Part shown: positions 12,875 to 53,082 of the stretch, piece by piece | Numbering within the stretch: the stretch's first letter is position 1 | Layout: each line of letters opens with the position of its first letter | DNA from: an uncultured Candidatus Saccharibacteria bacterium | Lineage (GTDB): Bacteria > Patescibacteriota > Saccharimonadia > Saccharimonadales > CAYVSP01 | Length of the DNA: 64,000 nt | Direction: 5' to 3' | NCBI GenBank assembly: GCA_964584265.1 | Contig: CAZOZI010000002.1 | Span: forward strand, 66,340-130,339 | Notes under the pieces: model-generated | The model's database searches: none | What the model saw: the letters and a program-made list of their open reading frames with translations, nothing else | Told to the model about the DNA's origin: nothing | Program-made: the position numbers and the translations under genes

Positions 12875-13034
12875 TCCTTCATATCACACCGGCCTGTTTC
12901 TAGCAGAGCCAGAACTCTGCCGGTGTTCTTGGCACTCTGCTATGTCAGAGACTGCGGTACTCATTCACCGTACCTATTTGTACGATTCATTCTGTTCCTC
13001 GCCTCTTCCTTGCATTGTGCACAAGTATGAAGAA
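12875..13034 (-). repeat. Family A structured intergenic element, copy 1 (sense on the minus strand), directly upstream of metG
   Basis: 160 nt. P1 TTCTTCATA/TATGAAGGA, P2 AGAGGC/GTCTCT, P3 CGTAC/GTACG, P4 ACACCGGC/GCCGGTGT. Shares junction blocks with the five other copies. Confidence 0.75.
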
Positions 13035-13060
13035 CCGATGTACTGGTCTATTGTATCAGT

Positions 13061-19749: not shown

Positions 19750-20553
19750 TTAGCGGCAGGCGGGCCAACTCCTAATATTTGATGGGCCTAAACCCCAGGA
19801 TGATCCGTCAAATACATCTGTGTGTATTACTGCAAGATCTCCATAGTCTGTCCGAATGTCAAGCCCAGTAAGAGTCAAGCTGCCAATTGTGCCATATAGG
19901 TAACCATTACCGCTAATACTCGGCCCTACAACATGAGCACCTAAACTAACTCGTTGAATTTCAGCTTGATAACGAGGTCCCATAATTGCACCTTTTGGTT
20001 TTTGAAATAAAAATCTGACATTTTCATATATGCCTTGTATTGTATTATGACAAGCCCATACTTTAGTCTTATTATTGCCTTGCCCAAGGTAAGCGTAGTT
20101 ACTATATGTATCGTTTGTAAATGTAGCATTCATCTCCGCTGCAAACGTATACCATGTTTGAGTCCCAATAATGCCATCAACAGCTATATTATTAGCTTTT
20201 TGCCATTCTATAGTGGCGTTTTTAGTGCCTGAATCAAAGTAACCATTTTGAGAAACAAACTGACCGGCTTTATGCATCAAGAAATATTGGGCTACCTTCA
20301 CGCAACCAGTATTATTTGGCTTACTATCACTTATAGTAGCCGGAATACCACCAAAACCATAACAGGCATTGGCAGTAAGCAAATATTCCCATGGTGAAGT
20401 GGCAAAGCTGCGGTACAGGAAGATTCCTCCGCCAACGGCTCCAAATATAAGCACAAAGGCTACTAGTTGTTTAAGTTTAGTGTTAGGAATTAATGCCTTA
20501 GTAATACGCTTCAGTTTACTTTGCTTTTTACTATTTTTCCTTTTTGCTGGCAT
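19750..20553 (-). CDS. N-terminally anchored peptidoglycan-binding-domain protein, paralog 1 of 3
   Basis: 267 aa. It has a basic N-terminus plus TM (MPAKRKNSKKQSKLKR...LVAFVLIFGAVGGG), a PG_binding_1-like segment (IEWQKANNIAVDGIIGTQTW), four conserved Cys and a C-terminal Cys-Arg. Confidence 0.6.
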   Translation of the reverse strand: MPAKRKNSKKQSKLKRITKALIPNTKLKQLVAFVLIFGAVGGGIFLYRSFATSPWEYLLTANACYGFGGIPATISDSKPNNTGCVKVAQYFLMHKAGQFVSQNGYFDSGTKNATIEWQKANNIAVDGIIGTQTWYTFAAEMNATFTNDTYSNYAYLGQGNNKTKVWACHNTIQGIYENVRFLFQKPKGAIMGPRYQAEIQRVSLGAHVVGPSISGNGYLYGTIGSLTLTGLDIRTDYGDLAVIHTDVFDGSSWGLGPSNIRSWPACR

Positions 20554-20649
20554 TTTCTGATCTTTTTGATTTTAGTTCTTCTTATGGTTCAAACAACTGG
20601 ATAGATAGAACAAATTATCTAGCCTGGGAGATATATACAAAGTAATTGT

Positions 20650-21459
20650 TTAACGGCAGGTAGTCCAGTATCTTACTTCATTTGTAGCAAAATTAATTTT
20701 TTCTCTACCATCAGCACCTTTGAAATTCGAACCATAACCCTCAACAGTAATCCAATCGCCTTGTAGAATCGAAAGGCTCCCCTCCAAGCTACCCGCTGTG
20801 CCATAGTAATATGTGTTGCTAGACTTATTATCCTTTTGAGTGCGGTTATTTTCTATCCAGTATCCATAACGTGGCCCAAGCGATGCACCGGCGGCTTTGA
20901 TGAATTGCAACTTGAAATTATATACACCGCCGAAAGCTGATGTATAGTTTTGGCAGCCCCACATCCTAACTTGATTCTCGAACTGGCCAAGATAGCTATA
21001 GCCAGGAGGAACATAGTAGTTAGTTGGGGCATTCACCGCTGCCGCCATAGTAAGCCAGGTCATTGGTCCTACAACGCCATCAGCAGTAAGGTTAGCCCCC
21101 CTCTGCCAAGCTCGTATGTTTTGATCTAGCGAAATATTGTAATCTTGGTGTTCGGCCCAATATAAACCAGCATACTTACCTAAAAACTTGTCCACAGCTT
21201 TGGTGCAACTACTCCAGTTATTATATGCTGTCCCGGCTGGGGGCGCAGAAAGCTTAGCAGGTTGTCCACCGTAGTTTGGGCAGGATGAGGCTTGTAAGAA
21301 GTACTCCCAGGGTGTTAAGGCAAAACTTCTATATAGGAAGTAGCCGCCTCCTACAGCCCCAAAGACTAGGATAAAGGTTACTAGTTGTTTGAGTTTGGTA
21401 TTAGGAACTAAGGCTTTAGCGAAACGTTTTAGTTTGCTTTGTTTCTTACGGGCTGGCAT
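20650..21459 (-). CDS. N-terminally anchored peptidoglycan-binding-domain protein, paralog 2 of 3
   Basis: 269 aa with the same architecture (IRAWQRGANLTADGVVGPMTW) and the same ...TCR ending. Confidence 0.6.
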   Translation of the reverse strand: MPARKKQSKLKRFAKALVPNTKLKQLVTFILVFGAVGGGYFLYRSFALTPWEYFLQASSCPNYGGQPAKLSAPPAGTAYNNWSSCTKAVDKFLGKYAGLYWAEHQDYNISLDQNIRAWQRGANLTADGVVGPMTWLTMAAAVNAPTNYYVPPGYSYLGQFENQVRMWGCQNYTSAFGGVYNFKLQFIKAAGASLGPRYGYWIENNRTQKDNKSSNTYYYGTAGSLEGSLSILQGDWITVEGYGSNFKGADGREKINFATNEVRYWTTCR

Positions 21460-21566
21460 TTTTGTTTATCCTTTGTGGTAACTATTAAGGATAAGTGTAG
21501 GTGCAGTTAGTTAAAAATACAAATTAGTTATCCACAGTCAAACTAACGCAAGTGTTAGCCGCCCTC

Positions 21567-22055
21567 TTAGCTGCCGAAGATTTTGTGCCAGAGCCTAACT
21601 AATAATTTTCCGTTTCTCTTCGCCTCTGCTTGGTTTCTCTGCGCCCTTGCAAGCCTAATTTCACCGAGTTGAATTTCACGTTCTCTACTTATCTCAGAAT
21701 ACCATACTTGGTAGTCTTCATAGGCTTGCTTCGGAAATAACGCAACAGAAACTGCATTTGGATTCCCACTGCATCTTACAGTTTTATCATCTGCCACCTC
21801 AACTATGCAACCGTCAGCAAAATAGATATACCATTCCTCACCAAATTTTTCAGATAATTGCCTTGGTAATTCCGCTGGAGAACCAAATGTTACACCAAAA
21901 GACCCTAGATAATATCCATCCCCTAAATCCATATCCCTTTCAGGATTATTTACTATCGGACAAGACGCTACATCGAAGTCATCCCTAAGTACTCGATGGA
22001 TATTATGCCAATCTTTATTTACCTCTATTATTCCTGCACCTTCCACATATTCCAT
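21567..22055 (-). CDS. Hypothetical cytoplasmic protein
   Basis: 162-aa ORF with an ATG start and no motif. Sits between PG-binding paralogs 2 and 3. Confidence 0.45.
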   Translation of the reverse strand: MEYVEGAGIIEVNKDWHNIHRVLRDDFDVASCPIVNNPERDMDLGDGYYLGSFGVTFGSPAELPRQLSEKFGEEWYIYFADGCIVEVADDKTVRCSGNPNAVSVALFPKQAYEDYQVWYSEISREREIQLGEIRLARAQRNQAEAKRNGKLLVRLWHKIFGS

Positions 22056-22112
22056 GATAATAGTGTAAATTTATTAACCATACTTGCAAGCATGAGCATT
22101 TACAGATTAGGA

Positions 22113-22290
22113 ACAAACAAAAAAGCACTATCTAAATTAGATAATGCTCATTTGGTGGAGCACCTCGAAAAAAGTTCACCCCTCATTATTGAGGAAATAC
22201 GTAGATGTAGGTATTTACTCTGAGATTATTATATAGAACACAAACGAAAGAAAGAACGGCGGCAAAAGATAGCTGTCCCCTAAGGGTATA
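22113..22290 (-). repeat. Family B intergenic module, copy b (long form)
   Basis: Aligns with copies a and c. Contains hairpins CCTCA-ATAA-TGAGG and AGCATTATCTAA-TT-TAGATAGTGCT followed by a T-run on the minus strand. Confidence 0.65.
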
Positions 22291-22310
22291 ATTTACAGTA
22301 ACGGATTAAA

Positions 22311-23105
22311 CTAGCGGCATTGTGCCAGGTTAGATACGTTCCAGTATTCAATCGTATGACCTCCGCTTGCATTGGCAGAATCAGGAAAGATGCTATCTCC
22401 ATTAGGCATGTTCAAACTACCACTCCAAGCTGCCGTAGTGCCACCAAAATAGGTATTAAACCAGCCAGAGTTGTATATTTCACTGCCCCCACCACCAATG
22501 CTTTTTCTATATATTTTTACAAACAAAGGTGGACCTAACGTTGCACCTTGTGGCTTCATAAAGCGCAAGTTAACATTATATGTTCCTCCGTAAGCGGTGG
22601 TATACGTCTGGCAGCCCCATTCCACTACTCCATTTCCAAACGTGCTTAGATACGAATAGTTTCCAGCAGGAGCGCTTGAGCCAACGCTTTGAGCATTTAG
22701 TGCGACCTGAAGTGTATACCATGTTTGCGGACCCACCGCACCATCAGGAGTTATGTTATTGGCTTTTTGCCATTGGACGACAGCGGCTCTTGTGTATGGG
22801 CCAAAGCCCACTTCGTTGCTTGTCCCTAGTCCTGCTCGTTCCCATAACACGACATGCAGGGTGACCATACAACCATCTGGTCCATGACCTTGGGTATATA
22901 GGCCTGGTACGCCATTGATATTTGGGCAATTATACGCTCTCAACGTATACTCCCACGGTGAATAAGCAAAGCTTCTGTAGAGGAAGTAACCGCCCCCAAC
23001 AGCTCCGAAGACGAGGATAAAGGCTAGGAGTTGTTTGAGTTTGGTGTTTGGAACAAGGGCTCTTCCAAAACGCTTCAGTTTGCTTTGTTTCTTTTTGACT
23101 GGCAT
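22311..23105 (-). CDS. N-terminally anchored peptidoglycan-binding-domain protein, paralog 3 of 3
   Basis: 264 aa with the same architecture (VVQWQKANNITPDGAVGPQTW) and the same ...QCR ending. Confidence 0.6.
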   Translation of the reverse strand: MPVKKKQSKLKRFGRALVPNTKLKQLLAFILVFGAVGGGYFLYRSFAYSPWEYTLRAYNCPNINGVPGLYTQGHGPDGCMVTLHVVLWERAGLGTSNEVGFGPYTRAAVVQWQKANNITPDGAVGPQTWYTLQVALNAQSVGSSAPAGNYSYLSTFGNGVVEWGCQTYTTAYGGTYNVNLRFMKPQGATLGPPLFVKIYRKSIGGGGSEIYNSGWFNTYFGGTTAAWSGSLNMPNGDSIFPDSANASGGHTIEYWNVSNLAQCR

Positions 23106-25251: not shown

Positions 25252-25662
25252 ATGGTGGAGCTGCCGGGTACTACCCCCGGGTCCGCTAGTTTATCTGGTT
25301 AGTCTTCTACAGGCATAGGTCATTTGATTACTGCAAGACATAGAAATGACCAAAAAGTCTTACAGGTTGATTCAATTGTCTTAACCAAATGTCGAATCAA
25401 ACATTTGATGCATCCAGATTATATGACACGCACTGGCAATATCTGGCGTCAGGCTAGGCGCGGTTAAAGCTAATTAAGCCTTAACAAAAGATGGAGCTAG
25501 CGGAGAGATAGAAGCAACAAAGTTGTCTACCTTACCTTGAATGCTAGCTACAAATTCGCGAATTCGTGATTTTGCACTTATTCGTGGTTGCCATATGACG
25601 CTTAGCAAGCGACCTGCTGATCTAACCGATAAAGTCCAACGTCAAGCTTAAAATTCAGCCCC
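25252..25662 (-). ncRNA. ssrA: tmRNA (ssrA)
   Basis: The 5' end is GGGGCTGAATTTTAAGCTTGACG and the 3' end is GGACCCGGGGGTAGTACCCGGCAGCTCCACCA. The acceptor stem GGGGCTG/CAGCTCC includes the G3-U70 alanine identity pair. An internal tag-like frame runs from GCA after AATAAGT to TAA. Confidence 0.85.
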
Positions 25663-37794: not shown

Positions 37795-38763
37795 CTAGCG
37801 CTTGGCAAATTTGCGAAGGAAATAGAATTTGTGCCACAGAGCACCACCAATAGCCGCGGCCGTAAAGATGCCCGCGATATCTTCGGCCCCCGTATCAGTT
37901 AGGGTTGTTGTGCTACTGGCTGTAGTAGTCACTGGAGTGGAAGTGGGTGGAGGTGTTGTAATAGTCTTGGTTTTGAAGTTGACAACTCTTACACACTTAT
38001 TCTTGTCAGACACCCATTTAGTATCACCATTGGCAAATTTGATATGTACGCTGCCAACGACGGTGAATGGACCATTACTGCTGTATTTGTGAGTATCGCT
38101 CTGCTTGAAGCTTACTTCGTTATTCTCATCCCAAGCAATTTTGTAGCCAATGATTTGGGCGTTATGGACTTCACCATTCACTTTGGCACTTACAGTGCGC
38201 TCTTCTTTGTTAACAAAAGCTACATCTAGGCTGCTACAAACACCGGTTGAAGGCGGAGGTGGTGGTGGATTGGGTGCACAATCTAGACCGTTACCACCTA
38301 CGTAAGCGTTTAACAAACGTCCTGGTTCGTAGGGCAGGTGGCCATTAGGACCAGTTGGGTTTAACCCCAAGGCAAGGTCAACCTGGTAAAAACACTTCGG
38401 CACGTTAACAGTCATTTTGTATGTGCCAGGGCTGGCATTCTCAAGCTTAGATGCACCAAATAACATCTGATCCTCAAGTGGATATGGGTTGCCGTCTTGA
38501 TGTGGGATAGTAAAGGCAGCAAGCACAAAATTCTTATGGCAGTTGCTATCACCTCGTACTATAAAATCTATGCTGATCGTATCGCCTTTAGAATTAGTTC
38601 CCTTAACGAACCCTTGACCAAGACCTTGCTCGATAAATTGGCAGGTTGGTGTGTCGCCAGGTGAAGCAGCAACATGTGACTTGACCGCAAAACCAACCAC
38701 CAAAGCTAAGCCTAAAACCAAACCTAAAACTAAGTTATGTGTTCTTCCTAAACCTTTGGCCAT
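37795..38763 (-). CDS. Sortase-anchored surface protein (LTDTG sorting signal), paralog family S with an extra domain
   Basis: 322 aa with the same N-terminal domain as 36876-37505 and 50276-50917. It also has a poly-Pro linker, an extra beta domain, and LTDTG followed by a TM helix and a basic tail. Confidence 0.7.
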   Translation of the reverse strand: MAKGLGRTHNLVLGLVLGLALVVGFAVKSHVAASPGDTPTCQFIEQGLGQGFVKGTNSKGDTISIDFIVRGDSNCHKNFVLAAFTIPHQDGNPYPLEDQMLFGASKLENASPGTYKMTVNVPKCFYQVDLALGLNPTGPNGHLPYEPGRLLNAYVGGNGLDCAPNPPPPPPSTGVCSSLDVAFVNKEERTVSAKVNGEVHNAQIIGYKIAWDENNEVSFKQSDTHKYSSNGPFTVVGSVHIKFANGDTKWVSDKNKCVRVVNFKTKTITTPPPTSTPVTTTASSTTTLTDTGAEDIAGIFTAAAIGGALWHKFYFLRKFAKR

Positions 38764-44154: not shown

Positions 44155-44523
44155 ATGACGAAAATTGCAATTATTGAAGATGACCTGGCTATCAGCCAGA
44201 TGTACCGCATCAAGTTTGAGGCGGAGGGCTTTGAAGTTGAGACTGCCGAGAATGGCAAACTAGGCTTAGCACTATGTGAAAAGCTAAAACCAGATATTAT
44301 CCTACTCGATCTAATGATGCCCGAAATGCGTGGTGATGAAATGCTGGCTGCCCTCCGAAAGACTGACTGGGGCAAGCATATTAAGGTGGTCATTCTAACC
44401 AATATGGGCGAGCAAGAAGTACCTGAGGATGTTAAGAAGCTTGGAGTAGCCGCTGTTATTCTTAAGGCTGATATGACCCCGCGCCAAGTGGCTGAACTCG
44501 TTAAGACTACGCTTAAATCTTAA
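44155..44523 (+). CDS. Single-domain response regulator (CheY-like receiver)
   Basis: I prefer ATG at 44155 (MTKIAIIEDD...). It has the acidic pocket DD, the phospho-acceptor context ILLDLMMP, and a conserved K (ILKAD). The track start at 44020 overlaps the divergent transporter gene. Confidence 0.85.
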   Translation: MTKIAIIEDDLAISQMYRIKFEAEGFEVETAENGKLGLALCEKLKPDIILLDLMMPEMRGDEMLAALRKTDWGKHIKVVILTNMGEQEVPEDVKKLGVAAVILKADMTPRQVAELVKTTLKS

Positions 44524-44548
44524 GCTTGCTACAATATAATTAATGGCA

Positions 44549-44713
44549 AAAACTCCGCATTTGAGTGCAATGCAAGGAAGCGTCGAGAAACGTAGTGAGG
44601 TGTACATAAGGTACATTGAACAAGTATCGGAGACGCTGACACCGCAATACACCAAAAGCCTCAGTAGAGTGGCTAGCTTTGCTAGACAGCAGGCTGAGGC
44701 GGTGCGAGGTTTT
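44549..44713 (+). repeat. Family A structured intergenic element, copy 4, directly upstream of the murD-like gene
   Basis: 165 nt. P1 AAAACTCCGCA/TGCGAGGTTTT, P2 AGCGTC/GACGCT, P3 GTGTAC/GTACAT, P4 GCCTCAG/CTGAGGC. Confidence 0.75.
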
Positions 44714-44715
44714 GC

Positions 44716-46029
44716 ATGAGGATTGCAATTCTTGGTTATGGTGCTCAAGGTAAAGCCGCTTATGAATATTGGAATAAACTTGGTAGCGAACTAACTATCT
44801 GTGACAGCAATGCAGCACTCGCTACACCAAACGGGGTTCAAACCAAGCTCGGCCAAGATTATCTAAAAGACCTGGCGAAATTTGATCTGCTAGTCCGCAC
44901 GCCTGCCCTACATCCCCGTGACATAGTTGCAGCAAATCCTGACCAACCAAACATTCTTGATAAAGTCACAACTGTAACTAATGAATTTTTCAAGGTTTGC
45001 CCAACCAAAAATATCATTGGCGTTACTGGCACCAAGGGCAAAGGCACCACCAGCACGCTGATTGCCAAAATGCTAGAAGCCAGTGGTAAAAAGGTGCATT
45101 TGGGCGGCAATATAGGCACCCCACCACTAGATATGCTCAAAGCAGGAATCCAGCCAAATGATTGGTTAGTATTGGAGCTAGCCAACTTCCAGTTGATTGA
45201 CCTCAAAGCTTCCCCAGCTATAGCTGTCTGCCTTATGGTAGTACCGGAACATATGGATTGGCACAGTGATATGAACGACTATATCGCTGCTAAGCAACAG
45301 CTTTTTGCTCACCAATCATCAAGCAATGCAGCAATTTATTATGGACTCAATCCAACTTCGCAACATATTGCCAGTGTAAGCCCCGGCCAAAAAATCCCTT
45401 ACATGAAACATCCTGGAGCTGATGTAATAGAAAATGCCGTGGTTATCGACGGCCAAACCATCTGCAAAGTTGATAAGCTTAAATTGCTCGGCAAGCACAA
45501 CTGGCAAAATGTCTGTGCTGCCGTTACTACTGTCTGGCAGATAGATAAAAACGTTGAGGCTATACGTTCAGTCATCACCACATTCACGGGTCTTGAACAC
45601 CGCTTAGAATTAGTTCGTGAACTCAATGGTGTAACTTATTACAATGACTCATTCGCTTCTGTCCCAGATGCCACAATAGCCGCCATTAAAGCCATAGATC
45701 AACCAAAGGTGGTGATTGTCGGGGGATTTGAAAGAGGCTTAGATTTAACTGAACTCACCCAGGCTTTTGTGGCAAATCAAAGCACCATAAGTAAAGTTCT
45801 TTGTATCGGCGTAACCGGTTCTAAAGTTGCTGAATCTCTTAAGAAAGCTGGTTTCACCAACTATGAAGTCGTTGCAGAAAAAAGTATGAATAACATCGTC
45901 AAAAAGACACAGTCTACGGCTCAGTCTGGGGATGCGGTGCTTCTTTCACCTGGCTTTGCCAGTTTTGATATGTTCAAAAATTTTGAGGAACGTGGCCTGC
46001 AATTTAAAGAGGCGGTCAATGCACTATGA
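44716..46029 (+). CDS. murD: Mur ligase, MurD-like (UDP-MurNAc-L-Ala--glutamate ligase; possibly the L-Glu-adding MurD2 type)
   Basis: 437 aa with P-loop GVTGTKGKGTT and N-terminal ILGYGAQGKAAYEYW. It is 4-nt ATGA-coupled to the next gene. Confidence 0.75.
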   Translation: MRIAILGYGAQGKAAYEYWNKLGSELTICDSNAALATPNGVQTKLGQDYLKDLAKFDLLVRTPALHPRDIVAANPDQPNILDKVTTVTNEFFKVCPTKNIIGVTGTKGKGTTSTLIAKMLEASGKKVHLGGNIGTPPLDMLKAGIQPNDWLVLELANFQLIDLKASPAIAVCLMVVPEHMDWHSDMNDYIAAKQQLFAHQSSSNAAIYYGLNPTSQHIASVSPGQKIPYMKHPGADVIENAVVIDGQTICKVDKLKLLGKHNWQNVCAAVTTVWQIDKNVEAIRSVITTFTGLEHRLELVRELNGVTYYNDSFASVPDATIAAIKAIDQPKVVIVGGFERGLDLTELTQAFVANQSTISKVLCIGVTGSKVAESLKKAGFTNYEVVAEKSMNNIVKKTQSTAQSGDAVLLSPGFASFDMFKNFEERGLQFKEAVNAL

Positions 46030-47318
46030 GTAAATACAACACTTTTATGTTTAAAGATTATCAATTTGACATAGCCGCTAAAACCCTGCAACTACACTAC
46101 AGTTTTGACGAGCAACTCAACTTTAATGAGATATATAAATTTGATTTTGATTTCGTAGATTACAGCGAACATCAACTCGATATTGCTTTGCAAAGTTTGT
46201 TCTTAATGGCTGGCGTTTCGTATTATAAAACCTATTTGCCTCAGAAAATCGAATTCCAAATGCCCATCAGTCTTGATCAAGCTAGTCTCAACTTCTTTGC
46301 CAAAACCTACCAAAAAGGTCTGGGAGAATTCTTTTATACAAATCACCTTAATCCAAATACGCCTGTTCAGTTTCCGCCAAGTTCTGCTCACGCACAGCCT
46401 ATTGAAGCAGATGATAATAATGGATTATTGATTGGCATTGGGGGAGGTAAAGACTCTTTGTTAAGTGTAGAGCTTCTACGCGACCAGCCCAAAATAGCCA
46501 CCTGGAGCGTGGGACATCGCACACAACTCACACCACTAGTCGAAAAAATAGGTTTGCCACACTACTGGGTAGACCGCACGATTGACCCGAAGTTGCTGGA
46601 GCTGAAAAATAACCCAGATGCCTATAACGGCCATATCCCGATCTCTGCAATTCTGGCTTGCGTAGGTGTAATAGTGACAATCCTGACTGGCTATCGTGAC
46701 GTAGTGGTTTCCAATGAGAGCTCTGCCAGCGAACCAAATCTTATATATCAAGGCATACCGATTAACCACCAGTACTCTAAATCTCTCGAATTTGAGAAGG
46801 ACTTCCAGCAATTCCTAAAGTGTTATTATGGAGAAAGTCTACGTTATTATTCTTTCTTGCGACCATTGAGTGAACTACATATTGCCAAATTATTTGCACG
46901 AGTTGGGTTTGAAAAGTACAAAAGTGTGTTTAGCTCATGTAATCGAGCCTTTACTCAACACAGTGATCATATGTTTTGGTGTGGTGAGTGTCCCAAATGT
47001 GCATTTACTTTCTTAGCCCTAACGCCATTTATTGATCGAGAAAAACTAGAAGCCCTATTTGAGGGCAAAAATCTGCTATTGGATCAAAAGCTAGAGGCAA
47101 CCTATCGCCAGTTATTGGGCATTGAAGGCGACAAACCTTTAGATTGTGTCGGTGAGGTCAAAGAGTCACGTGCCGCGATGAGGCTAGCTCAGAAAATATA
47201 CCCAGAACTATCAAAATATCAATTCGAGATACCCAAAGAATATGACTATCTTGCTCTCTCGTCGCACAGTATGCCTGCAGAGCTTTTTGTAGTTTTTCAA
47301 GCAGCAATCAACTTCTAA
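46026..47318 (+). CDS. PP-loop ATPase-like protein with a CGECPKC motif, coupled to murD (candidate MurL-type epimerase)
   Basis: 430 aa with a GIGGGKDS PP-loop-like motif and FWCGECPKCAF. Start overlaps the murD stop. Confidence 0.4.
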   Translation: MSKYNTFMFKDYQFDIAAKTLQLHYSFDEQLNFNEIYKFDFDFVDYSEHQLDIALQSLFLMAGVSYYKTYLPQKIEFQMPISLDQASLNFFAKTYQKGLGEFFYTNHLNPNTPVQFPPSSAHAQPIEADDNNGLLIGIGGGKDSLLSVELLRDQPKIATWSVGHRTQLTPLVEKIGLPHYWVDRTIDPKLLELKNNPDAYNGHIPISAILACVGVIVTILTGYRDVVVSNESSASEPNLIYQGIPINHQYSKSLEFEKDFQQFLKCYYGESLRYYSFLRPLSELHIAKLFARVGFEKYKSVFSSCNRAFTQHSDHMFWCGECPKCAFTFLALTPFIDREKLEALFEGKNLLLDQKLEATYRQLLGIEGDKPLDCVGEVKESRAAMRLAQKIYPELSKYQFEIPKEYDYLALSSHSMPAELFVVFQAAINF

Positions 47319-49420: not shown

Positions 49421-49490
49421 CTGTGCTATTGTAACCCAATATTGCAAAAACAGGGGTAATTTGCTAAAGTTCCCGTAGTTTGACCAAATC

Positions 49491-49656
49491 AGCTTGCTTG
49501 GCTTTAGGCTAGTGCTAGGAAAGCCGCTGTTTGTGAGGTCAGTTGTATATAAATACTGCTGGCCGATCAAATCAGCGAGATTAACACCGCAATAGTCAAA
49601 GAGCACAAACAGAGTTTTGACTCTGTCAAAAGCAGGTTTGTGCGGCCAAGCAAGTT
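49491..49656 (+). repeat. Family A structured intergenic element, copy 5, ending 2 nt before tRNA-Lys
   Basis: 166 nt. P1 AGCTTGCTTGGC/GCCAAGCAAGTT, P2 CGCTG/CAGCG, P3 GTAT/ATAC, P4 GCACAAAC/GTTTGTGC. Confidence 0.7.
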
Positions 49657-49658
49657 GA

Positions 49659-49735
49659 GGGCCAGTAGCTCAGCTGGTTAGAGCACCTGCCTCTTAAGCA
49701 GGGTGTCGAGGGTTCGAGTCCCTCCTGGCCCTCCA
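49659..49735 (+). tRNA. tRNA-Lys (anticodon CUU), CCA encoded
   Basis: Hand-folded from GGGCCAGTAGCTCAGCTGGTTAGAGCACCTGCCTCTTAAGCAGGGTGTCGAGGGTTCGAGTCCCTCCTGGCCCTCCA. Confidence 0.92.
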
Positions 49736-49759
49736 AACCCGCCCATGCTTGCAAAATGA

Positions 49760-50275: not shown

Positions 50276-50917
50276 TTATTTACTAAGTTGGCGTCGGCGG
50301 CTGAACAGGTAGTGTCCGATAGCTGACAAACCAGATACCGATAGTGCTGCTGCAGCTACACCTGATGGGCCAGTACTTGTCAATTCAGCAGGGTGAGTGG
50401 TAGAAGCTGGTGTTGCAGTAGGAGTAGTTTTTGGTGTTTTAACTTCGCACTTAAGACCATGCCCACCTACGTAAGCGTTTAACAAACGACCTGGTTCAAA
50501 TGGCAAGTGCCCGTTAGGACCGGTTGGGTTCAAGCCCAAAGCCAGGTCAACTTGGTAGAAACACTTTGGTACATTAACGGTCATTGTGTGCGTACCAGGC
50601 TTAGCATTTTTCAGTTTGGCGTCCGCAAACAACTTCTGATCTTCAAGGGGGTATGGGTTACCATCTTTGTGTGGAATGGTGAAGGCACTAAGCACAAAGT
50701 CCTTACGACAGTTAGAATCGCCAGATACCTTGAAATCTATACTTATAGTATCGCCTTGGGCATTAGTGCCTTTAACGAAACCTTTGCCAAGACCTTCTTC
50801 TGTAAACTTACAAGTTGGCGTATCGCCAGGGTTAGCGAATACCTTCGCTGAAGCGGTCATGCCGGTAGCCAAAGCTACACCTAAAGCGAGACCTATAACT
50901 AAATTACGTATTTTCAT
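50276..50917 (-). CDS. Sortase-anchored surface protein (LTSTG sorting signal), paralog family S
   Basis: 213 aa, highly similar to the N-terminal domain of 37795-38763. The C-terminus is LTSTG, a TM helix, then RRRQLSK. Confidence 0.7.
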   Translation of the reverse strand: MKIRNLVIGLALGVALATGMTASAKVFANPGDTPTCKFTEEGLGKGFVKGTNAQGDTISIDFKVSGDSNCRKDFVLSAFTIPHKDGNPYPLEDQKLFADAKLKNAKPGTHTMTVNVPKCFYQVDLALGLNPTGPNGHLPFEPGRLLNAYVGGHGLKCEVKTPKTTPTATPASTTHPAELTSTGPSGVAAAALSVSGLSAIGHYLFSRRRQLSK

Positions 50918-51081: not shown

Positions 51082-51930
51082 TCATGAGCCTATGATTCCT
51101 CCTTTCTCCATGGCATTAATTAGCCGCGTTAACCCTATACCGCCACCTGAGCGGGGGAAGAAGTTAAGCTCCAAAAACTCATGTAATTCTTTTTCAACCC
51201 GTTTTTTACCGAACAGGTCAAACAATTTTTGGGCATACTTACCCTTACTAATGGAGTAAAACCCTTTTGTCATTTCTACCGCGTCGTTACTTCTTTCGGC
51301 ACTCCCAATAGTCTCATGACCGTGCATAATGACGTCTATCTTGTGGGCGTGGCTTTTACCTTTCTTTTTCATGTTCCAAAAAGGCGATGTGTAGACAGGG
51401 AAGTCTTGGCAAAATACGATTGGACCAAAGTCAGCCTGCATACGGCCTTCGTGGGTGTGTGTAAGTTCGCGAGTTTTATAATGACGAGCTAGCACGTCAT
51501 ATTGCTTATAGTGGAAGTCCTTACGGCTACCAAAGCCAAGGTGTTCTAATAGCTCGGTCTCGAACTTTTGTAAGTCCTTAATACTGCCCTTGATCTCGAA
51601 CTCGAACATAGGGAAGATGAGCTTATGGCGGCCAGGTACAGGGTTCTGTTCATTACGGTAGCTAGTACTCACACAGAAAACACCCGGCAACTGTGGACGT
51701 GTAAGCAGTTCATACTCCAACCACATCTGACCGGTTTGCGGTAAAGGCCATAAGTTACCAGCGTAGTTATAGGTAGCTACAGTATCTGGGTCCTCGCAAG
51801 CAGCTAATATGCTTAAGCGATCCTGAGTACTTACCTCTACGAAACCCTTGCTTAAACAAAAGCTACGCAACTTATTGACTACCTTGCTAAAGGCAAGGCT
51901 ATCATCTACTCCTCTATAATTGTTTACCAT
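51082..51930 (-). CDS. Class II aaRS catalytic-core paralog without an anticodon-binding domain (asparagine synthetase A / AsnRS-paralog type)
   Basis: 282 aa with a motif-2-like STSYRNEQNPVPGRH and a motif-3-like GGGIGLTRL. Confidence 0.55.
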   Translation of the reverse strand: MVNNYRGVDDSLAFSKVVNKLRSFCLSKGFVEVSTQDRLSILAACEDPDTVATYNYAGNLWPLPQTGQMWLEYELLTRPQLPGVFCVSTSYRNEQNPVPGRHKLIFPMFEFEIKGSIKDLQKFETELLEHLGFGSRKDFHYKQYDVLARHYKTRELTHTHEGRMQADFGPIVFCQDFPVYTSPFWNMKKKGKSHAHKIDVIMHGHETIGSAERSNDAVEMTKGFYSISKGKYAQKLFDLFGKKRVEKELHEFLELNFFPRSGGGIGLTRLINAMEKGGIIGS

Positions 51931-52172
51931 TTATACCCTCCTTATGTTGATTTACTTGAGCACCCCCGCACGTTGACAGCCCTTTGCCGGTGCGGGGATG
52001 CGCCGAATGCATAAAAAAACAGCCCCGTAGGGCTGTTTTGCTGCAAAGATATGGCCGCGTTTTCATGCTCGGCGATATCTAATTTTATGCATTAGGATAC
52101 AACATAGCATAAGCATATCCAGCCTGCCAAATAGATTTGTAAAAGATTGTTAATTTATATCATAGTTAGCAT

Positions 52173-52243: not shown

Positions 52244-52348
52244 CTAGGAGTTTCGGCGGCGCGCTCGGCCGCTTGCCCTGCCCCCCATACTCGAAATTTC
52301 GCGTTGACGAGCTTTATCCATTGCCGCAAATCCGCGTTTTTTTGCCAT
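52244..52348 (-). CDS. Small KGG-repeat / general-stress-type protein (34 aa), below the ORF-track size cutoff
   Basis: Manual translation gives MAKKRGFAAMDKARQREISSMGGRASGRARRRNS. GGGAGGG lies 5 nt upstream of the ATG. The GFA.MD...REI...GG pattern is typical of KGG stress-induced proteins. Confidence 0.6.
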   Translation of the reverse strand: MAKKRGFAAMDKARQREISSMGGRASGRARRRNS

Positions 52349-52423
52349 AAAAACCCTCCCTTACATTAGTTAGCCTACCTAGCATAGTTGCTTAATACAC
52401 GGTTCACTATTAGATATTTAACT

Positions 52424-52588
52424 ACAAGTTCGCATCGCATGGGCCTGCTGCCCAGCTGAACTGGCCACTCTGCGCATGCTTTTAGCGTGGTGCGATGTCA
52501 GAAACTCCGCTACTCGTTCACCGTATAATCATACGACTCACTCTGTTGCTCGTTTCTTCCTAGCACCGCATCCAAATGCGAAACTTGT
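52424..52588 (-). repeat. Family A structured intergenic element, copy 6 (sense on the minus strand), between the DHFR-like gene and the KGG ORF
   Basis: 165 nt. P1 ACAAGTTTCGCAT/ATGCGAACTTGT (one bulge), P2 AGAAAC/GTTTCT, P3 CGTAT/ATACG, P4 GCATG/CATGC. Confidence 0.75.
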
Positions 52589-52593
52589 ATGAA

Positions 52594-53082
52594 TTAAGCT
52601 TGATTTCGTCGCCAAACTTCAAAATGATAGGTTATAGCATTCTCGGTAATGGGTTCGCTCTTGGAAACAAGCTTAAAATCACGTTCAAACTCAGGAAAGA
52701 ACTTGGTGCAATTAAAGTCACCAGTTAGTCGTGTTAAGTGCAGCTCCTCCGCTAAATCCATTGTGCTTTTAAATAACAGAGCACCGCCCGTATTCCATAC
52801 ATCGGTTTTACAGGTTTTTAGGAATTCACGCCCGTCTGACACTGCTACAAAACCCTCTCGCAGTTTTTCGTGCACCCCACGCATGGCAACATAATTAATC
52901 TTATGTTCGTTCTCATATGGCCGCGAAAGTTCAACGTACAAACCAAAGCCCATGAGTATGTAACCCTTCTTGATTTTGTTGCGGTAGTAGTGCACATCAG
53001 TTGGCACTTTACCTTGCCATGGGAGGCCATGCTCATCTGCAATGCCCCGCTTGCTGTCAATCGCAGCAATAAAACGAATCAT
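52594..53082 (-). CDS. folA: Dihydrofolate reductase-like protein
   Basis: 162 aa. The N-terminal IAAIDSKRGIADEHGLPW aligns to the DHFR IAA...IG....PW motif. Adjacent to folC. Confidence 0.7.
   Translation of the reverse strand: MIRFIAAIDSKRGIADEHGLPWQGKVPTDVHYYRNKIKKGYILMGFGLYVELSRPYENEHKINYVAMRGVHEKLREGFVAVSDGREFLKTCKTDVWNTGGALLFKSTMDLAEELHLTRLTGDFNCTKFFPEFERDFKLVSKSEPITENAITYHFEVWRRNQA

Follow-up and report, generated by a model that had tools for sequence, protein, structure and literature searches.

The leader of the murD-type gene

A 64,000-nucleotide stretch of DNA from an uncultured Candidatus Saccharibacteria bacterium (assembly GCA_964584265.1, contig CAZOZI010000002.1, positions 66,340 to 130,339) was analysed and is called the window here. 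All coordinates follow the numbering of this whole 64-kb window unless another contig is named. It contains a murD-type Mur ligase gene, the leader of which is occupied by one copy of a folded repeat, Family A. The feature under study, bases 44700-44718, lies where the closing stem (P1) of this copy meets the murD start codon. The locus is composed of the following features.

44527-44535, + strand: promoter-like extended -10 box (TGCTACAAT), 7 nt before ATG 44543 and just past the stop codon of a response-regulator gene; kept in the orthologous locus L037
44543-44719, + strand: 58-codon open reading frame (ORF) through the whole element; its TGA stop overlaps the murD ATG (ATGA), and its frame leaves three conserved UGA triplets out of frame
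44546-44559, + strand: P1 5' arm (GCAAA-AA-CTCCGCA), of which 44549-44559 is the core that pairs with the Shine-Dalgarno (SD) arm
44548-44708, + strand: covariance-model match of Family A copy c44, the murD leader
44560-44656, + strand: domain 1, a long irregular hairpin with conserved internal loops (AGGA, GAG-A, UGAG/UGAA, CGGA, GACA-GCA); the most conserved part of the family
44658-44700, + strand: domain 2, a hairpin with a 4x4 internal loop (AGAG / GCAG), variable or missing in some relatives
44703-44715, + strand: P1 3' arm TGCGAGGTTTTGC, within the feature under study; holds the murD SD GAGG (44706-44709)
44716-46029, + strand: murD-type Mur ligase gene, its SD sitting in the element arm

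The strand AAAACTCCGCA (44549-44559) is antiparallel to TGCGAGGTTTT (44703-44713), and reading of the sequence gave nine Watson-Crick pairs, one G-U pair (T44554/G44708) and one C/A mismatch (C44555/A44707). This is exactly the 10 of 11 positions with one G-U pair described in the first-pass annotation. Among random 11-mer pairs from the window, complementarity of 10/11 occurs with a frequency of 5e-4. The GAGG is separated from ATG 44716 by the 6-nt spacer TTTTGC, and its earlier identification as the only SD candidate was confirmed. A second GAGG (44696-44699) is not usable because it lies 16 nt upstream and is paired inside the domain-2 stem. The protein that starts at ATG 44716 is 437 aa long and has Mur_ligase_M and Mur_ligase_C domains; the homologues closest to it carry the name UDP-MurNAc-L-Ala--D-Glu ligase and have the N-terminus MKIAILGYG vs MRIAILGYG here. 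The 181-nt region around the leader showed a minimum free energy (MFE) of -63.7 kcal/mol (z = -4.9), and the stem 44549-59/44703-13 closes a structure of ~170 nt. The cost of making the region from SD to start single-stranded was 11.3 kcal/mol at murD and 13.0 at metG, against 2.5-6.7 at five other starts of the window.

The murD stop is overlapped by a gene (46026-47318, + strand) for which no Pfam match was found here, while the record of its 430-aa counterpart in L037 lists MurL_N and MurL_epimerase_C. L037 (GCA_964453655.1) is the closest available relative, and its MurD is 77% identical. On the basis of this recorded counterpart, the murD-like ligase may be the MurD2 partner of the MurL epimerase pathway. 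In the related loci L039-L041, a glutamate racemase gene adjoins murD in place of the MurL-type gene.

Fold, copies and locations of Family A

A covariance model was built from four window copies and used to find copies in the 64 kb. Family A is ~160-170 bp long and five copies were found in the window, the murD leader copy and the following four.

12878-13037, - strand: copy c13, between a NUDIX gene and metG; SD GGAG in a 12-bp P1
14085-14242, + strand: copy c14, convergent with (antisense to) the 3' end of a trehalase gene; no co-oriented downstream gene, arm without SD
49490-49649, + strand: copy c49, divergent; a leader between a conserved promoter-like box and the tRNA at 49659-49732
52423-52592, - strand (model match 52588-52429): copy c52, directly past the DHFR stop codon; 163 bits

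The fold of Family A is a three-way junction of the closing stem P1, domain 1 and domain 2. In an alignment of 29 sequences, 94.7% of the cells are paired and both partners vary in 38 of the 45 pairs. This covariation was not equalled by any of 500 shuffles, and slid controls were 26-43% paired. Helices 1-5 of domain 1 are 90-100% paired, with the majority of their pairs covarying, and the internal loops are kept across genomes of 40-63% GC. Rfam 15 contains no family matching Family A, and the window searched at gathering threshold gave no hit over the element. At E <= 10 the sole match of the element was the R2 RNA element, with 12 bits vs a gathering score of 38, which is chance level; six further Family A loci searched at E <= 1 gave weak matches to microRNA models only, all outside the element. 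T-box, signal recognition particle RNA, 6S, 5S and the known ribozymes were rejected as the identity of Family A because no Rfam match was obtained. A literature search for elements of this kind in Saccharibacteria or Patescibacteria found none described.

Further copies were obtained by scanning reference genomes and metagenomes with a pattern that demands the conserved domain 1. Copies occur at unrelated loci in at least 30 contigs beyond the window. Six of the seven reference genomes with pattern matches are labelled Saccharibacteria or Saccharimonadales. The sole reference match outside Saccharibacteria (L003, DATLEQ010000023.1) is a 10.8-kb contig of a metagenome-assembled genome labelled Limnocylindrales, with the element before obg at the contig end; this contig is possibly mis-binned. 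Twelve metagenome pattern matches (e.g. L009-L013) showed no covariance-model match and were dropped as chance. Viral contigs gave no Family A match. The metagenome loci carry no taxonomy, the numbers per context are small and some start codons were set by the N-termini of homologues.

A version with domain 1 only was found directly upstream of rpmA (L27) in three genomes (L002 3002-3124, L014 3996-4136, L016 2853-2991); its closing stem contains AAAGGA. Two other genomes have this version in antisense position between grx and trxB (L001 5616-5764, L005 5893-6045). Domain 1 may be a functional module by itself.

The genomic contexts of Family A are diverse. Copies lie directly 5' of the start codons of murD, metG, ftsZ, obg, rpmA, rnhB, a Bac_transf gene and an unnamed gene starting MVIEQLFGSKTR, directly 5' of tRNAs (c49, L037b, L019b), in antisense position (c14 and the grx/trxB spacer in L001/L005) and alone before an intrinsic-terminator hairpin (L018/L020/L006). 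Among the intergenic copies 14 of 16 are in sense orientation (p = 0.002). The genes downstream (murD, metG, ftsZ, obg, rpmA, rnhB and the sugar transferase) share no common pathway.

Copies were also found inside coding sequences (CDS). The nucleotide search placed them in RarA/MgsA (between ...AKDN and ...VLFVDEIHRFNK), in TsaD (between FPKARSII and GLGKYDFSFSGIKT), near the N-terminus of a Y-family polymerase and twice in MurD itself (P0020, P0022). All of these are in frame and stop-free, and all use the single UGA-avoiding frame; the frame of the 58-codon ORF is the only one that puts all three conserved UGA triplets out of frame. A profile of the peptide that the element encodes was run against 1.84 billion representative proteins and gave 243 clusters. 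The majority are 55-70-aa ORFs called on intergenic copies and ~25 are inserts in larger proteins, with FolD, malic enzyme, pseudouridine synthase, PrmC (three clusters), DNA methylase, UmuC, PilM, NrdR and MsrA as hosts. The inserts of FolD and PrmC fall between Pfam domains. At least 12 unrelated protein families contain the fold in frame. A protein word-index search with the c44 peptide returned the query itself as the sole match.

An intron-like element, removed from the RNA and so placed without effect on translation, would account for the interruption of conserved genes and for the pairing of the flanks, which joins two junctions. This is very improbable. For an insert that is spliced out, in-frame openness would be unnecessary, and every CDS copy is in frame and open, in the UGA-avoiding frame; group I or II features and an Rfam hit were likewise absent. 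The intron hypothesis was therefore rejected.

Comparison of orthologous sites distinguished filled and empty ones. MurD P0020 (517 aa) carries a 57-aa insert that is missing from the close relative P0015 (460 aa, 89% identical). At the DNA level, the murD genes of L039 and L040 are filled (102 and 128 bits), and that of L041 is empty, with no covariance-model hit. In the predicted AlphaFold model of P0020, the MurD fold has a predicted local distance difference test score (pLDDT) above 90 and the insert residues 149-203 have a pLDDT of 27-45. In the spacer between the DHFR and KGG-repeat genes, c52 is present in the window and missing at the orthologous site of L037, with a sharp right boundary. 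Both P1 arms are part of the inserted DNA, as both are missing at the empty sites (L041, L037). For the same reason, insertion into a pre-existing terminator hairpin, suggested by the A-run, stem and U-run appearance of the c44 P1, was rejected.

Some CDS copies extend their pairing into the host gene. In the rarA copy L031 the outer P1 pairs partly with host codons (ACAG-G-GTGCG with CGCACTGT, encoding R-T-V), and in the murD copy L040 the 3' arm runs on into the host sequence GTATCCAG. Such pairing with host codons, along with resemblance between element ends and host, may be a clue to the mechanism of insertion.

Downstream of c52 lies a 34-aa ORF (52244-52348, - strand; MAKKRGFAAMDKARQREISSMGG...) with a strong SD, which matches the KGG-repeat small protein gene beside DHFR in L037. 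A G+C-rich hairpin followed by a T-run (CAGCCCTACGGGGCTGTTTTTTT; 51950-52070, - strand), situated in the long spacer before a tRNA-synt_2-like gene (51082-51930), is probably the terminator of the KGG gene.

The tRNA slot occupied by c49 (window 49440-49740; L037 13455-13760) behaves differently from the murD leader. It is filled in both genomes, by c49 and L037b, and the two bodies are almost wholly diverged, each with a P1 of 13-18 bp. The flanks are kept, the left one as an identical 24-nt promoter-like stretch (…GGGGTAATTTGCTAAAGT) and the right one as a nearly identical tRNA. The P1 arms are completely different, CAGCTTGCTTGGC/GCCAAGCAAGTTG vs GTGACACACGCAC/GTGCGTGTGTCAC. The difference points to either turnover, through separate insertions at a hot spot, or compensatory change at a very high rate.

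Family A might instead be a multi-copy gene for a stable RNA, cut out by RNase III within P1 or by RNase P before tRNAs and acting in trans or with a protein partner, the SD overlap being incidental. The stand-alone copy followed by the intrinsic-terminator hairpin, the copies abutting tRNA 5' ends at three loci and the long P1, which resembles a processing stalk, agree with such a gene, and so does the retention of the fold even in CDS copies (102-141 bits) with reduced divergence at third positions. Excision, however, would cut the mRNAs of essential host genes, close relatives lack the element at given sites, and a strict pattern scan gave one match per genome in the seven reference genomes hit. 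A stable-RNA gene is accordingly considered quite unlikely.

The closing stem and the Shine-Dalgarno motif

The inner 7 bp of P1 are semi-conserved throughout the family (5' YTTYGCA / 3' TGCRAAR), whereas the outer 4-11 bp are copy-specific and yet complementary. The whole stem has a length of 11-18 bp and is often perfect. In 22 copies, duplexes of a copy's own arms had a mean of -18.8 kcal/mol vs -7.4 +/- 3.3 for arms swapped between copies; for the outer parts alone, the values were -7.6 (own) and -2.6 kcal/mol (swapped). The first-pass annotation had considered P1 at murD and P1 at metG unrelated in sequence, which is wrong, as both are variants of the family-wide consensus. The murD arm TGCGAGG is one A-to-G transition away from the consensus TGCGAAG. 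In L037 (CTTCGCA / TGCGAGG) the new G stands in a G-U pair as predicted, and in L044 TGCGGAGGATAC pairs with GTATTTTTCGCA via three G-U pairs. Because A-to-G transitions are tolerated as G-U pairs in these copies, an SD can arise inside the arm without breaking P1.

Of the 8 independent contexts in which a start codon lies within 20 nt, 7 have an SD-like motif among the first 12 nt of the arm; of the 15 other contexts, only 1 has (Fisher p = 2.5e-4). The arm SDs are therefore not a mere by-product of purine richness, and the generalisation made in the earlier annotation, that the SD-in-P1 geometry recurs, has statistical support in these contexts. In two start-proximal copies, L026 and L028, the SD lies just outside P1. 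The SD-in-P1 geometry was observed at seven unrelated genes (murD, metG, ftsZ, obg, rpmA, Bac_transf and the unnamed gene starting MVIEQLFGSKTR). Of the earlier claim that this geometry arose independently at two loci, the recurrence is thus extended, while the independence does not stand, since the arm belongs to a repeated element.

The murD copy differs from its L037 orthologue at 22 of 177 positions (12.4%), and murD at 28% overall and 61% at 4-fold sites; the leader copy evolves ~5x slower than 4-fold sites. Identity between the two loci is 85-90% over ~44520-44756, which covers the element, the upstream box and the first murD codons, and is 58-68% deeper in murD and 65-82% in the upstream gene. 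A recombination tract behind this conservation is unlikely, as identity peaks at 44520-44756 and falls away into murD and in the upstream gene. The 58-codon ORF is also open in L037, with 16 of the 22 substitutions non-synonymous. Changes in the stems mostly keep pairing and one is fully compensatory. From the non-synonymous excess and the pairing-keeping stem changes together it follows that the constraint acts on nucleotides and structure and not on the peptide. Selection on the encoded peptide was rejected on the same count of substitutions, and also because many intergenic copies are frameshifted while retaining the same nucleotides. Judged from this comparison, the murD copy is under strong purifying selection at the nucleotide level and is old and fixed. 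In the MurD insert, third-codon divergence is 0.39 vs 0.56-0.60 in the flanks, which hints at structure-level constraint even within coding sequence.

These observations bear on a possible dedicated cis-regulatory RNA, such as a riboswitch or a leader bound by a protein, in which the core senses a signal and P1 hides the SD as expression platform. Conserved internal loops with heavy covariation, the significant enrichment of the SD in P1 at seven unrelated genes, the bias to sense orientation, the strong purifying selection on the murD copy and the domain-1-only version kept before rpmA in three genomes would all suit it. The same fold, however, is present in frame in at least 12 unrelated proteins, in front of tRNAs, in antisense to operons and, standing alone, ahead of a terminator, the downstream genes have no common pathway, and orthologous sites are polymorphic for its presence. 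P1 with its 11-18 bp, often perfect, is too stable for a typical switch, and neither MFE nor centroid folds contained an alternative helix competing with P1 that could free the SD. A family-wide regulatory leader is thus unlikely; the occurrence inside CDS, before tRNAs, in antisense and as stand-alone copies argues that Family A is not a dedicated leader RNA. The cis role suggested by the first-pass annotation for at least some copies is supported by the SD enrichment, the sense bias and the conservation of the murD copy, and does not extend to the family as a whole. On the same three grounds, some copies are very probably integrated into the expression of their downstream genes.

Candidate origin and role of the murD leader copy

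The explanation preferred here, with a probability of roughly 0.6, is that bases 44700-44718 represent the P1 3' arm of a structured insertion-element copy along with the murD start, that the element resembles the Rickettsia palindromic elements (RPE) and that its arm was co-opted as SD. The ~170-bp element, a terminal inverted repeat (P1) around a three-way junction, would insert into leaders, spacers and the one permissive frame of CDS. Its 3' arm is purine-rich by consensus, and in copies placed directly before a start codon A-to-G transitions would convert it into an SD, GAGG in the case of murD, to which the pyrimidine-rich 5' arm would remain paired via G-U. Since the purine-rich consensus arm still pairs with the 5' arm, the SD would be sequestered by inheritance from the element and not by a stem evolved for each gene.

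On sequence grounds the murD copy is very probably part of murD expression, and it plausibly affects murD translation in cis. Coupling via the 58-codon ORF is the likeliest route of this putative effect. Transcription would start just past the TGCTACAAT box, which would leave AUG 44543 close to the 5' end. Ribosomes starting there would open P1 as they translate the ORF, stop at the UGA of AUGA and begin again on murD, its GAGG now being free. In this way P1 would make murD translation dependent on upstream translation, or would simply damp it. ORFs which cross the element and end 1-11 nt past the downstream start were found at three unrelated genes (c44/L037; L036/L008/L042; L044). The TGnTACAAT box of c44 also precedes c13, L036, L008, L042, L044 and other window genes. 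Many window genes have a TATAAT-like or TGnTACAAT -10 box 7-10 nt before the ATG (e.g. 57448, 60273, 52594-53082 on the minus strand, 1224), and an SD-like motif was found in ~19 of 58 window genes. Such boxes, lying 7-9 nt before many ATGs, suggest that a large share of transcripts in this genome is leaderless.

RPE are multi-copy repeats of ~100-170 bp with a stable stem-loop, located in intergenic regions and in frame in housekeeping genes; they have no transposase of their own and their insertion mechanism is unknown (PMC10969869). Family A shares with them the size class of ~100-170 bp, the stem-loop fold, the intergenic and in-frame sites and a conserved peptide, and its insertion may likewise leave the host protein undestroyed. 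RPE properties are reportedly covered also by Ogata et al. 2000. By these properties Family A is classed as an analogue of the RPE, its closest one, and not as a member of the RPE families. It belongs to another phylum, Saccharibacteria/Patescibacteria. It also differs in its fold, a three-way junction in which the internal loops are conserved and covariation is very strong, in an outer terminal stem that changes from copy to copy and yet stays complementary, and in the many copies in 5' leaders that supply the SD, one of them under strong purifying selection.

Correia (NEMIS) and ERIC elements are miniature inverted-repeat transposable elements that are co-transcribed with their neighbours; their RNA hairpins alter neighbour expression, e.g. 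by RNase III cleavage at paired repeats (PMC10969869). Like Family A they are short inverted-repeat elements in transcribed intergenic regions. Unlike it they have sequence-conserved terminal repeats and, in Correia, defined target duplications, and frequent in-frame insertion into CDS is not described for them; Family A has no evident target duplication. Translational riboswitches resemble the murD copy in being structured 5' leaders in which the 3' strand of the closing helix holds the SD (opening cost 11-13 kcal/mol here). In contrast to them Family A has no regulon coherence and no alternative helix in its folds, has a much longer P1 and occurs also where there is nothing to regulate. In translational coupling an upstream ORF unwinds a sequestered ribosome-binding site, for example in MS2 coat-replicase and at overlapping ATGA operon junctions. 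The murD locus is similar in that its upstream ORF ends at ATGA on the downstream start and its SD lies in a helix which ribosomes translating that ORF would open. It differs in that a repeat element provides this putative ORF as its open frame, and in that the peptide is not conserved (16/22 non-synonymous).

Several observations count against insertion followed by co-option and coupling. Mobility is inferred solely from the filled and empty sites and the scattered locations. No clear target duplication was seen in the two filled/empty pairs, which showed only weak resemblances (AGCTTAAT / AGTTAAAT; the L039 element 3' end GTACCAGC is like the following host sequence GGTATCCAGC). A transposase or autonomous partner did not turn up, although no search aimed at longer elements that share its ends was made. 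A simple two-hexamer scan found no sigma-70-type promoter at 44527-44535, so the box there has a putative promoter role; the promoter and terminator scan of the murD locus gave no match. As to coupling, only ~1/4 of the intergenic copies keep the through-ORF open, and the L042 and L044 examples came from a protein search and hence are open by ascertainment. The metG copy (c13) has in-frame stops in the through-frame, and coupling is therefore not the general way of freeing the SD; at metG the SD may be freed by breathing or by RNase III cleavage of the long stem, or translation may merely be attenuated. Finally, the loops, the covariation and the conservation of the murD copy exceed what a decaying selfish repeat would show and leave room for an RNA-level function.

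The last point also suggests a tentative alternative, possible though improbable, in which Family A is an element whose RNA or single-strand DNA fold, and not a transposase-binding end, is selected in every context including CDS. It is kept in consideration because of the conserved loops, the stem covariation between and within loci, the constrained third positions in CDS and the slow evolution of the murD copy. The element would then be either an RNA-mediated mobile module or a host-factor-recognised, domesticated portable leader cassette, turning leaderless genes into SD-dependent ones coupled to an upstream ORF (uORF).

The window contains further repeats and RNA genes apart from the murD locus. 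Three tandem paralogous genes of ~265 aa (19750-23105, - strand) have 161-nt stretches which are 71-80% identical, and a 300-nt direct repeat (38251-38550 / 50420-50719, 75% identity) links two distant genes; both are unrelated to Family A. A tmRNA gene (25253-25662, - strand; RF00023, 64.9 bits) and five tRNA genes were also found.

If insertion and co-option are the correct explanation, the presence of a proliferating 170-bp folded repeat in tiny Saccharibacteria genomes thought to be streamlined would be notable. The element would have entered essential enzymes in frame (MurD, TsaD, FolD, RarA, PrmC) and would supply the ribosome-binding site of cell-wall, cell-division and translation genes, and the phenomenon of protein-coding palindromes would be extended from Rickettsia to the candidate phyla radiation. 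Gene calling on Family A copies yields hundreds of spurious 55-70-aa proteins and N-terminal extensions, as the 243 peptide clusters indicate. Insert-bearing enzymes will confuse orthology and structure pipelines, and Family A is a ready marker for strain typing. The family also offers a natural experiment in which the arm of an inverted repeat becomes a paired SD by single transitions, and it may show leaderless genes becoming uORF-coupled.

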